A stretch of 2,547 nucleotides of DNA. Source: Escherichia coli (GTDB lineage: Bacteria > Pseudomonadota > Gammaproteobacteria > Enterobacterales > Enterobacteriaceae). Positions 540 through 2,547 of this stretch are shown here, piece after piece. The notes below the pieces were generated by a model, which saw only the letters and a program-made list of their open reading frames with translations, did no database searches and was not told the origin of the DNA. The stretch lies in NCBI RefSeq assembly GCF_003334785.1, contig NZ_QOWV01000056.1; one strand, written 5' to 3'. A program made the translations under genes and the position numbers. Numbering within the stretch: the stretch's first letter is position 1; every line of letters begins with the position of its first letter.

Positions 540-600
540 TTGCGTGAGAAAGGATCTTCGGAAAATAAAAGTAATGTACAGCCCGTCATGTGTTTTCAGG

Positions 601-633
601 TAAAAATAAAGCCCCTGCCATTATGGCAGAGGA
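601..633 (-). terminator. Putative intrinsic terminator downstream of the 137-aa secreted-protein gene
   Basis: Minus strand reads CCTCTGCCA-TAA-TGGCAGGGG followed by CTTTATTTTTA: an imperfect 8-9 bp stem then a T-rich tract, about 55 nt past the stop at 687. Confidence 0.4.
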
Positions 634-686
634 TTTATTTACATTTGATATTAATAACGCGCAGATAAGATACTATAATTCATACA

Positions 687-1100
687 TTAAATTTTGATTT
701 CGTCAAGCCCGACAATCTTATGAATCGTATTGTCGTAAAGTTTAACGCCCGGTTTACCGTTTTTTAGGGTAACGAAACCGGCGGTGATGTTGCCTTCACA
801 ACTTTGATTGTTGTTGTATTTGATAGTCTGGGCTTTACCGGTATAGAAATTAATTACGTCGTATAAACCATCCCAGCACGCTGTACCCCCCATGGCGTGT
901 ACCAGACCGTATTGCATGTCTTTGGATGTGCCCAGGTATTCACAACCTCCGTCGATAGTATCAGTACCCTGACACCAAAATTCTGTACCGTCAGTAACAT
1001 CAGTCAGGTTGGTCGGTAAAGGAACGGCATTGTTTGCTGATACATTAGCAGTAAAGAAACTGATAACTGCAATCATTAAAATAGTGATGATATTTTTCAT
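687..1100 (-). CDS. Secreted (Sec signal peptide) cysteine-containing protein of unknown function, 137 aa
   Basis: Complete ORF with ATG at 1100..1098 and TAA at 689..687; GGAG 8 nt upstream of the ATG. The N-terminus MKNIITILMIAVISFFTANVSA has a basic n-region, hydrophobic h-region and VSA cleavage motif, with no lipobox cysteine. The mature ~115 aa are rich in N/T/G/Y with 4 Cys, consistent with a beta-rich periplasmic or extracellular protein. AT-rich, unlike the backbone. No family recognised by eye. Confidence 0.8.
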   Translation of the reverse strand: MKNIITILMIAVISFFTANVSANNAVPLPTNLTDVTDGTEFWCQGTDTIDGGCEYLGTSKDMQYGLVHAMGGTACWDGLYDVINFYTGKAQTIKYNNNQSCEGNITAGFVTLKNGKPGVKLYDNTIHKIVGLDEIKI

Positions 1101-1369
1101 GATAAATACTCCATTGTTTCTGATATTAAATAAAAGTATAAAAACTGTTTCTGCAATACTTATAATCCACTCGAGAGGTCAGGATTAACTCCCGACTTGT
1201 TTATTAAACACATACCTGAAGATATGACCTTCAACATGGTGATATATTTATACTATGTTTCTGACTGTCTCCTGAATCAAATAAAATATATCCGTTCCAT
1301 GATGAACATCATTTACCTGTTAAGAACACTAATAACCTGATTATTTAGTAAACTCTGCGATAAAGAATA
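1101..1369 (-). promoter_or_regulatory. AT-rich intergenic region expected to hold the promoter of the 137-aa gene
   Basis: 269-bp very AT-rich spacer between the stop of the 179-aa gene and the start of the 137-aa gene. It has several TATAAT-like hexamers, a GGAG ribosome-binding site at 1110-1113 (+ strand CTCC), and a palindrome ATGATGAACATCAT at 1299-1312. Exact -35/-10 not assignable by eye. Confidence 0.35.
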
Positions 1370-1909
1370 TCAGACCGTAAATAACACCAGTATCAGCATA
1401 ACCAACCAGACCCAGAAATACGCAGGTTTTTGTCCGAGGATTTTTGCCCGACGCCACAGATAAACCGGGATCAACCATGCCAGCCAGCCAAATGTTGCAG
1501 TATCAACACCAGATTTACGGAGTTTTCGTTCATCCAGATATCCCAGAGCAATATTCAGAATCAGAGAGATAAACCAGTACTGGCCTTCGCTGACTGCATC
1601 ATAAGCCCGTTCAAATGACATACCGTTCAGCCCTGCAGTCCACATCTCAAGTATGTACCCAATCAAAGGGGCAAATGCCAGCGTCCAGACAACGCCTCCG
1701 GGAATGCGGTGACCCGGAAGGGCTGGGGGAACTTCACTTTGTTTCAGTATTTCCGCCAGTGATGTGGCTGAAACTGGCTGCCATTCCAGCATGCCCTGTT
1801 GCCACACCAGTGTTGATGCATTCAGTTCACCACGCCGGATACGTTCGATAATATCTTCCTCTGTTACGTTATCATAACGTACACCATTTTTTTCATAATG
1901 CCAGTTCAT
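1370..1909 (-). CDS. Membrane protein with N-terminal GYF_2/DUF4339-like domain and 3-4 C-terminal transmembrane helices, 179 aa
   Basis: Complete ORF with ATG at 1909..1907 and TGA at 1372..1370; strong AGGAG 6 nt upstream. Residues 1-55 (MNWHYEKNGVRYDNVTEEDIIERIRRGELNASTLVWQQGMLEWQPVSATSLAEI) fit the W-Y..NG...G.I..TLVW..GM.W pattern I associate with DUF4339 (GYF_2); recollection, not searched. Hydrophobic segments at about residues 72-93, 110-124, 139-152 and 163-179. The + ORFs 1430..1618 and 1615..1851 are antisense shadows. Confidence 0.8.
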   Translation of the reverse strand: MNWHYEKNGVRYDNVTEEDIIERIRRGELNASTLVWQQGMLEWQPVSATSLAEILKQSEVPPALPGHRIPGGVVWTLAFAPLIGYILEMWTAGLNGMSFERAYDAVSEGQYWFISLILNIALGYLDERKLRKSGVDTATFGWLAWLIPVYLWRRAKILGQKPAYFWVWLVMLILVLFTV

Positions 1910-2034
1910 CTGATTCTCCTGTTAATCATTCAGTTAATAAAATATATGACATCTGAAACAAAAAATATTTTTATAATATTCATTTTCACTCACTGTATTA
2001 AATTAAACTGAGGTGTTTTACACCACGTTATCAA
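1910..2034 (-). promoter_or_regulatory. AT-rich intergenic region expected to hold the promoter of the 179-aa gene
   Basis: 125-bp AT-rich spacer between the stop of the 117-aa ORF (2037..2035) and the start of the 179-aa gene; minus strand has TTGATA and several TATAAT/TATAAA-like hexamers. Exact elements not assignable by eye. Confidence 0.3.
1916..1920 (-). promoter_or_regulatory. Shine-Dalgarno (AGGAG) for the 179-aa membrane-protein gene
   Basis: Minus strand reads AGGAG-AATCAG-ATG. Confidence 0.6.
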
Positions 2035-2388
2035 TTATTCCTGGAACCAGGTGTTCCAGCAGTTGTCGTAGAATTTGTTACCCAAAGTCTTTTTCACATT
2101 TTTGATATTTGCGGTATAGCTGTCGACTTTCTTACCGTTTACTAAAACGTCGAATTGCGTGGCTTCACTGATAGCATCGATAAAGTATACCCATGCATTC
2201 TTATTCATTCGTGTTCCGTCGACAGATGGGGCCGGATACTTTTTATCGTTGATGATAAAAATAATATCAGAATCGTACTGATTTAGCTGGGTGGAGGTAT
2301 GACCGTAAATCCACACATAGTGTGGTGGCAAATTGTTGTCTTCTGGATTAATCGTGCAGTTAATAGAAACATTACCGATACTGAACAT
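2035..2388 (-). CDS. Signal-peptide-less paralog of the 137-aa secreted protein, 117 aa; possibly a decaying pseudogene
   Basis: ORF with ATG at 2388..2386 and TAA at 2037..2035. By-eye alignment to the 137-aa protein gives collinear motif matches: F(S/T)..NVS; W..G.(D/T).T (EFWCQGTDT vs YVWIYGHTST); W...(Y/I)D.I (WDGLYDVI vs WVYFIDAI); (K)AQ vs ATQ; (I/Y)TA; G.K(L/F)YDN (GVKLYDNT vs GNKFYDNC). The ORF starts at the equivalent of residue ~15 of the 137-aa protein, so it has no signal peptide. No Shine-Dalgarno before the ATG; in-frame TAG 9 codons upstream (2418..2416). Confidence 0.55.
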   Translation of the reverse strand: MFSIGNVSINCTINPEDNNLPPHYVWIYGHTSTQLNQYDSDIIFIINDKKYPAPSVDGTRMNKNAWVYFIDAISEATQFDVLVNGKKVDSYTANIKNVKKTLGNKFYDNCWNTWFQE

Positions 2389-2547
2389 ATCAGTGCCAGC
2401 AATACTGTTACGCGTCTACAATGCCGATTCTGTTTGTGCTACGGTTGCACTTACAGTGTAAGCGACTCGTCAGAACCGTATTGATATTTACTGAGAGCTC
2501 AGATCAACTTTCCAGGGCAACAGATCGCGTACCCGGTTTGCCGGCCA

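Follow-up and report, generated by a model that had tools for sequence, protein, structure and literature searches.

Two conserved genes and a YfjT-family pseudogene in the AT-rich block of a CP4-type genomic island of Escherichia coli

We analyzed a 2,547-nucleotide (nt) stretch of Escherichia coli DNA (assembly GCF_003334785.1, contig NZ_QOWV01000056.1; hereafter the window, which means this whole stretch), the AT-rich middle of which encodes a GYF_2/DUF4339 membrane protein of 179 amino acids (aa) and a predicted exported protein of 137 aa, here called Cys4 after its four conserved cysteines. All genes in the window lie on the minus strand. An earlier note, written from the sequence alone, had described three co-oriented open reading frames (ORFs) of 117, 179, and 137 aa as a three-gene cargo module, and all three were present at these sizes (Table 1). 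The block does recur as a syntenic unit in related islands, but only two of its genes are alive in the window. The window was matched, across 97% of its length, in 77 of 5426 complete E. coli genomes, a block frequency of 1.4%; the closest of them was strain TW10722 (99.9% identical), where the match ends at position 2461. Read on the plus strand, the matching genomes carry DUF4942, DUF957, DUF5983, CbtA, CbeA/YeeU, DUF987, RadC/JAB, and antirestriction genes, followed by DUF932, a DUF905 pseudogene, the 137-aa hypothetical protein, the DUF4339 protein, and a short hypothetical protein, and at the end of the run patatin-like, RdcB-like, dynamin-like, and Ag43/Cah genes. The annotation of the TW10722, O157, and SCPM loci shows this CP4-57/CP4-44-type flanking set together with integrase remnants, and the window is a segment of an integrative island of that type, with DUF932 and DUF905 as the only members of the flanking set to fall inside it.

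The composition of the block agreed with the description of an AT-rich insert: the G+C fraction of positions 540 to 2420 is 0.398, against 0.538 in the left flank and 0.496 in the right, and single features run from the low values of the two intergenic regions (Table 1) up to 0.48 in the 179-aa gene. The reported contrast between 60-mers also held at its extremes (0.72 near position 35 and 0.15 near 1920), but the flanks had been taken for chromosomal backbone and are not: on the left stand the DUF905 pseudogene and the DUF932 gene of the same island, the latter being the DUF932/YfjQ-like neighbor that had been correctly recognized, and on the right stands the end of an IS66-family insertion sequence (IS). 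We hold the anatomy set out in Table 1 with high confidence.

Table 1. Features of the 2,547-nt window, in order of position
Feature	Position	Strand	Evidence
DUF932/YfjQ-like gene, 5′ part (first 88 codons; ATG 266-264)	3-266	minus	tblastn 100% to WP_001234625.1 residues 1-88; RefSeq annotation in TW10722
Terminator-like hairpin after DUF905 remnant, 13 pairs then TTTCATTTAT	315-344	minus	
DUF905 pseudogene, frameshifted	366-589	minus	RefSeq frameshift flag on 99.9%-identical TW10722 copy
Intrinsic-terminator-like hairpin closing the block, 9 pairs (6 G-C) then CTTTATTTTT	612-632	minus	
Intact gene for 137-aa exported protein Cys4 (predicted); Sec signal peptide, four conserved cysteines C43, C53, C75, C101; predicted all-beta	687-1100	minus	
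Intergenic, AT-rich (G+C 0.305), conserved; hairpin 1178-1196	1101-1369	minus	
Intact gene for 179-aa predicted inner-membrane protein; N-terminal GYF_2, PPxLPG linker, three strongly hydrophobic helices and one interfacial	1370-1909	minus	
Intergenic, very AT-rich (G+C 0.248), weak promoter-like match at 2001-1973	1910-2034	minus	
YfjT-family pseudogene; 117-aa ORF (2035-2388) is its 3′ part; TAG 2416-2418 for Trp; first 13 codons missing	2035-2457	minus	
IS66-family (ISCro1-like) terminal part, starts GTAAGCG, interrupts YfjT-like signal-peptide region	2458-2547	not assigned	

The 117-aa ORF had been read as a free-standing gene and proved to be the tail of a YfjT-family pseudogene. Its residues 8 to 102 align with residues 50 to 146 of K-12 YfjT (37% identity, BLASTP E 1e-18), and it matches a Yersinia YfjT-family protein at E 2e-21; both alignments start about 40 to 50 residues into the YfjT proteins, and the homology covers the mature domain. 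In TW10722 the frame reaches further upstream and includes a start codon with a signal peptide, MKLLNILLAVVLTVSATVAQ, and it is broken there as in the window by a TGG-to-TAG nonsense codon where relatives have Trp, while the O157:H7 copy has several more stops and frameshifts. An intact ORF with an N-terminal signal peptide, as a functional YfjT would have, is thus not present in the window, which departs from the island sequence exactly at 2458. The 90 nt of IS66-family element that lie inside the window are ∼96% identical to ISCro1 ends in many E. coli records. Intact 152-aa orthologs, at 95% and 86% identity, carry PF27224 (YfjT), and a metagenome scaffold (L092), which shares 96.9% identity with the window across 1770 nt, has the whole trio intact, in the order patatin-like gene end, YfjT with TGG at the critical codon, GYF_2 gene, and Cys4. 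Between the window and O157 the yfjT remnant shows 15.5 non-synonymous and 3.5 synonymous differences, a ratio of non-synonymous to synonymous rates (dN/dS) of 1.08. Because of the intact orthologs, the L092 trio, the nonsense codon, and this ratio, we take the trio, on these sequence comparisons, to be a real ancestral unit whose first member has recently become a pseudogene in the window.

Other properties of the 117-aa ORF had been misjudged or were less telling. It had been called a paralog of the 137-aa protein, to which its BLASTP match has an E of 0.49. The module had been credited with ribosome-binding sites of its own; Shine-Dalgarno sequences do precede the 179-aa gene (AGGAG) and the 137-aa gene (GGAG), but nothing comparable stands before the 117-aa ORF. 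Nor does it remain without a nameable family, given the PF27224 of its orthologs. Our Pfam profile search with the 117-aa ORF returned noise only (Laminin_G_3, E 0.033), from a copy of Pfam that may predate the YfjT family, and a PDB sequence search with K-12 YfjT gave nothing meaningful.

Sequence comparison shows the 179-aa and 137-aa genes to be real and subject to purifying selection, in contrast to the decaying yfjT-like and DUF905 genes on either side. We draw this conclusion because comparison with the Salmonella orthologs gives the 179-aa gene a dN/dS of 0.075 (dS 1.12) and the Cys4 gene one of 0.10 (dS 0.70), and because the pair is kept whole: of 78 E. coli genomes with any part of the segment from 687 to 1909, 77 have it complete. 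Both are entered in RefSeq as ordinary coding sequences (CDS) in 29 of the 29 full-coverage E. coli rows displayed. A non-functional island remnant in which all three ORFs are junk would account for the two pseudogenes, for the IS that landed in the block, and for the rarity of the block among complete E. coli genomes. Such low dN/dS values at a synonymous divergence of 0.7 to 1.1, the RefSeq entries as CDS rather than pseudogenes, and the conservation of orthologs in many Enterobacterales genera speak against it, and as an account of the whole block we give it next to no credence: it is disfavored for the 179-aa and 137-aa genes and holds for the 117-aa ORF.

As had been proposed for its N terminus, the 179-aa protein carries a GYF_2 domain (PF14237) at residues 3 to 48 (Pfam, E 1.3e-11, 44.6 bits), and Pfam gave nothing besides it at E up to 10. 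Its 79 relatives, down to 37% identity, come from Yersinia, Citrobacter, Salmonella, Serratia, Hafnia, and Saezia, among others, and all full-length homologs carry PF14237. In a 25-sequence alignment the invariant residues are P61, P62, and L64 right after the GYF domain, W75, A78, A80, and P81 in the first hydrophobic helix, and L118, N119, L122, D126, E127, G134, T137, W145, P148, and Y150 elsewhere. Hydrophobic segments span residues ∼71-94, 111-126, and 161-179, with a Trp-rich, less hydrophobic helix at ∼141-152; the loops 126-140 and 153-162 hold four Lys/Arg each, and the loop 95-111 is acidic. Since the positive-inside rule, applied with hydropathy and these loop charges, favors an N-in orientation, we infer that the GYF_2 domain, the PPxLPG linker, a conserved DE(R/K)KLR loop, and most of the conserved residues lie in the cytoplasm and that ∼17 residues would face the periplasm. 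The AlphaFold2 (AF2) model is confident (pLDDT 84.9), and its fold matches in AFDB50 are exclusively uncharacterized GYF/DUF4339 membrane proteins of Proteobacteria, Firmicutes, and Bacteroidota, with TM up to 0.92; a PDB sequence search gave nothing meaningful. The protein thus shares with the DUF4339 family both the GYF_2 domain and the whole-protein fold, but no characterized member of the family has its architecture. The only studied bacterial GYF_2 domain that we found is that of GltJ from Myxococcus gliding motility (a 671-residue NCBIfam model), to which the 179-aa protein has weak matches only (NCBIfam E 0.004; PDB 7z3c E 0.04). Eukaryotic GYF domains bind proline-rich peptides, and it is speculation that the invariant PPxLPG linker might act as a self-ligand of the GYF domain.

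Read by eye, the Cys4 signal peptide has a basic N terminus, a hydrophobic core, and VSA before the predicted cleavage site. Cys4, like YfjT where intact, would be exported by Sec, and both probably form two disulfides; the earlier term "secreted" is apt in that export is predicted, but the predicted destination is the periplasm rather than the medium. C43, C75, and C101 do not vary among 22 Cys4 sequences, and conservation of C53 is at least 90%. The protein has no match in Pfam, NCBIfam, PADLOC, or PDB sequences, a search of AFDB50 with its AF2 model (pLDDT 84.5) returned uncharacterized relatives only, and over residues 1 to 135 it matches phrog_8968 (function unassigned; E 9.4e-36). The family amounts to 39 clusters among 1.84 billion representatives. 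A long repeat protein from the representative search (P0104, 1252 aa) gave six part-matches to the Cys4 profile (E 2e-12), probably a likeness of cysteine spacing in a repeated domain and not true family membership.

Full-length Cys4 relatives, at 38 to 42% identity, are encoded in 53 phage records, all of them from SPN3US-like jumbo phages that infect Salmonella, Erwinia, and Proteus, whereas relatives of the 179-aa protein are absent from the phage records. In SPN3US itself the adjacent gp181, gp182, and gp183 are all Cys4 members with signal peptides (locus L090, 2487-3808; the locus in Erwinia phage Asesino is L091, 3001-3414). These proteins of Seoulvirus and Erskinevirus share the signal peptide and the cysteine pattern of the island family but form a tandem array in a lytic phage, with no GYF-membrane gene, and are all annotated as hypothetical. 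Full-length, gp182 is 38% identical to the Cys4 of the window, and gp181 is 49% identical to a 150-aa paralog in Salmonella islands. Because gp181 and gp182 match the two Cys4 subtypes of Salmonella islands, the sequences suggest exchange between lytic jumbo phages and genomic islands.

The 269-nt spacer between the two intact genes is 82% identical to its Salmonella counterpart, though synonymous sites in the flanking genes are near saturation. A 7-bp minus-strand hairpin within it (Table 1) keeps its pairing through two compensatory double changes among three sequences and could, on this pattern, serve in regulation or RNA processing. We rejected a 25-codon ORF in the spacer, as its frame is not conserved in Salmonella. 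No minus-strand terminator was detected between the two genes, while the one that had been predicted at the end of the block was confirmed as a hairpin with the features of a Rho-independent terminator, 55 nt past the stop codon of the 137-aa gene. Promoter-like matches numbered 6 in the window and 6.3 in shuffled sequence, with no excess, and we claim no promoter; Rfam gave no match at E up to 1 on either strand of the window.

For the gene neighborhood of the membrane protein, one genome per species was scanned with its alignment, which yielded 79 loci. The 27 Enterobacterales loci (73-85% identity; they include three contigs of one Enterobacter genome and two of one Hafnia genome) all lie in islands of this CP4 type, and in every one the GYF-membrane gene adjoins a Cys4 or a YfjT gene. 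Arrangements at these close loci were taken from a tblastn map, and those in Salmonella, Yersinia, and Citrobacter were also seen with called genes. The prevailing order (24 of 27) is YfjR, the GYF_2 gene, and Cys4, in most cases with another Cys4 gene, DUF905, and antirestriction behind them; Edwardsiella and Mixta have a Cys4 gene ahead of the GYF_2 gene, and a YfjT gene comes after the GYF_2 gene in Mixta and Yersinia similis. Hence the genes co-occur in other genomes, as the trio on L092 and as the pair in E. coli, and no single well-characterized system accounts for them, which are the two outcomes that the note's reading of a module called for.

The other 52 loci (35-58% identity) gave no Cys4 match, not even to the family hidden Markov model (HMM). 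In four Pseudomonas loci, however distant their GYF-membrane homolog (only 42-43% identity), a YfjT-family gene directly adjoins it. The distant loci are likely mobile elements too, because some carry RadC and lambda-exonuclease-family genes nearby. A conserved protein of ∼293 aa starting MIKGLAITPPVIGRISIG recurs 0.6 to 1 kb upstream of distant GYF_2 membrane genes (L043-L045, L047, L050, and L080: Alcanivorax, Rhodanobacter, Pseudomonas, and others) and has no NCBIfam match.

The islands of K-12 provide the nearest known comparison. CP4-57 (yfjP-yfjQ-yfjR-ypjK-yfjS-yfjT), like CP4-6 and CP4-44, is alike in island type and in having a slot for small envelope proteins; it shares the DUF932/YfjQ, DUF905, antirestriction, RadC/JAB, DUF987, and CbeA/CbtA flanks, and its YfjT is homologous to the 117-aa ORF. 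The slot of K-12 differs in having YpjK and YfjS instead of a DUF4339 membrane or Cys4 gene, and the island of the window differs in that YfjR is absent, a patatin-like/RdcB/dynamin-like/Ag43 module lies upstream, and the YfjT gene is dead.

The intact block comprises three genes, for a YfjT-like exported protein, a GYF_2 inner-membrane protein, and the exported four-cysteine beta protein Cys4, and we propose that the membrane protein and its adjoining small exported protein(s) would serve one envelope task that benefits the element, most likely by hindering the entry of incoming phage or mobile DNA, or else by some other remodeling of the envelope. We tentatively favor the reading that the genes are envelope factors linked in function; that their task is exclusion specifically seems improbable. 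The linkage is suggested by the 77 of 78 E. coli genomes that keep the pair together, the adjacency at all 27 Enterobacterales loci, the YfjT adjacency in Pseudomonas, and a terminator-like hairpin that follows Cys4 with none detected between the two genes. The one experimental lead on small envelope proteins from this kind of island is YafY, an inner-membrane lipoprotein without an assigned function whose overproduction activates the Cpx envelope stress response (PMC6538781); for YfjR, the neighboring regulator candidate, no ChIP-exo binding sites were found (PMC8464067). Our literature search found no functional study of YfjT, YfjS, YfjR, bacterial DUF4339/GYF_2 membrane proteins, or SPN3US gp181-183.

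The main rival is that the genes are independent, "moron-like" cargo with unrelated functions that merely share the variable cargo slot, which in intact islands lies downstream of the YfjR regulator gene; we regard it as possible but rather unlikely. It would explain why slot content varies among islands (YfjS, YfjT, a 188-aa exported protein, and one or two Cys4), why Cys4 occurs in tandem paralogs in SPN3US-like phages and the membrane protein across several bacterial phyla, each without the other, why each gene has its own Shine-Dalgarno sequence at a distance of 269 nt, and why conservation in the membrane protein faces the cytoplasm. It fits poorly with the recurrence of the YfjT adjacency at 42% identity in Pseudomonas, with a pair that stays intact while both flanking genes decay, and with an enrichment of exported neighbors: at distant loci a signal peptide or lipobox was found in 25 of 53 adjacent same-strand genes and 74 of 388 others (odds ratio 3.8, p 3e-5), as judged by a crude heuristic on greedily chosen naive ORFs from loci that are not all independent. 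The roughness of this count is among several points that weigh against functional linkage. The synteny in Enterobacterales may reflect the common descent of one island instead of functional coupling; GYF-membrane genes are widespread without Cys4, as at the 52 distant loci, and lytic jumbo phages have Cys4 without a GYF-membrane gene; the small periplasmic exposure of the membrane protein and its cytoplasm-facing conserved residues speak against direct binding of a periplasmic partner; and all sequence and fold matches are to uncharacterized proteins, with no annotated relative that has a function.

The earlier note had offered toxin/immunity, bacteriocin/immunity, and defense as hypotheses, and none gained from the analysis, which found no toxin, lysis, or release domain, no PADLOC match, and no obligate pairing. 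A pair with Cys4 as the toxin and the membrane protein as the immunity factor, which we judge very unlikely, would fit the architecture of a small exported protein beside a small multi-pass membrane protein and nothing else. It fails because there is no toxin or release function and no obligate linkage, both of which are testable features: Pfam, NCBIfam, and PADLOC showed nothing that would serve as a toxin or in lysis or release, Cys4 with only a Sec signal is predicted to stay in the periplasm and not to be released, the putative immunity gene is far more widespread (79 loci against 39 putative-toxin clusters), and phages carry up to three tandem copies of Cys4 without an immunity gene. The membrane gene also comes first and is followed by the 269-nt spacer, unlike the tight coupling expected of such pairs.

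An uncatalogued, envelope-acting anti-phage defense, with the GYF-membrane protein as sensor or effector, is more plausible than a toxin and still unlikely. The island has antirestriction and CbtA/CbeA genes, K-12 CP4-57 carries abpAB and rnlAB, and small membrane and periplasmic proteins are typical of superinfection-exclusion functions. A search of all three proteins against PADLOC-DB 2.0 at E up to 1, on the other hand, matched no family, a result that also counts against the envelope task we propose; no enzymatic or effector domain was found, and the presence of Cys4 in lytic jumbo phages fits a phage-benefiting function at least as well. T4 Imm and Sp, T5 Llp, and F TraS and TraT are small envelope exclusion factors of mobile elements (inner-membrane, periplasmic, or lipoprotein) and offer a functional analogy only; no sequence or fold similarity between them and the trio was detected.

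A broader form of the linked-factor proposal, which we consider a long shot, is that the GYF_2 protein and interchangeable exported partners (YfjT-type, Cys4-type, and lipoproteins) make up a two-compartment envelope module that is widespread among mobile elements and has so far gone undescribed. In it, an envelope event such as the entry of phage or conjugative DNA would be sensed or blocked by the periplasmic partner, and the membrane protein would relay it through the GYF domain to a proline-rich cytoplasmic target; jumbo phages would then carry arrays of Cys4 to exploit or counter the same envelope step.

If the genes are indeed linked envelope factors, they would be ordinary island cargo. 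RefSeq already lists the sequences under DUF or hypothetical names ("DUF4339 domain-containing protein", "hypothetical protein"), and islands of this type are well known. The new results are the diagnosis of the yfjT-like gene as a pseudogene, the place where the IS begins, a description of Cys4 as a family that extends to jumbo phages, and neighbor statistics for DUF4339 genes. For annotation, the 117-aa ORF is best recorded as a YfjT-family pseudogene and the right-hand "backbone" as an IS66-family end, and the toxin/immunity idea can be dropped. Of modest wider value are a four-cysteine exported family without a Pfam entry that is common to Enterobacterales islands and SPN3US-like jumbo phages, and the tendency of DUF4339 membrane genes to have genes for exported proteins beside them, in distant bacteria as well; both points bear on the "y-gene" content, so far unexplained, of the CP4-type islands that most E. 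coli carry.

Some minor observations concern the surroundings of the block. Both genes that flank the live pair have decayed, and the DUF905 remnant, of which only residues 1 to 33 of the Salmonella protein align (to window 589-497), keeps its own strong terminator-like hairpin (344-315). Past the right end of the window, other E. coli genomes continue with a patatin-like phospholipase gene, RdcB-family and dynamin-family genes, and then Ag43/Cah (L001, 17625-24947). The patatin-like, RdcB, and dynamin-like genes upstream of the trio occupy the place that the YfjR regulator has in other islands, and they seem to be island-borne paralogs of rdcA/rdcB, a chromosomal pair. At the IS boundary, the 17 nt before the IS end (2441-2457) resemble the flank of an ISCro1 copy in E. 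coli EC19 at about 13 of 17 positions, which made BLAST run the IS match into island DNA; this likeness may reflect target-site preference or chance.

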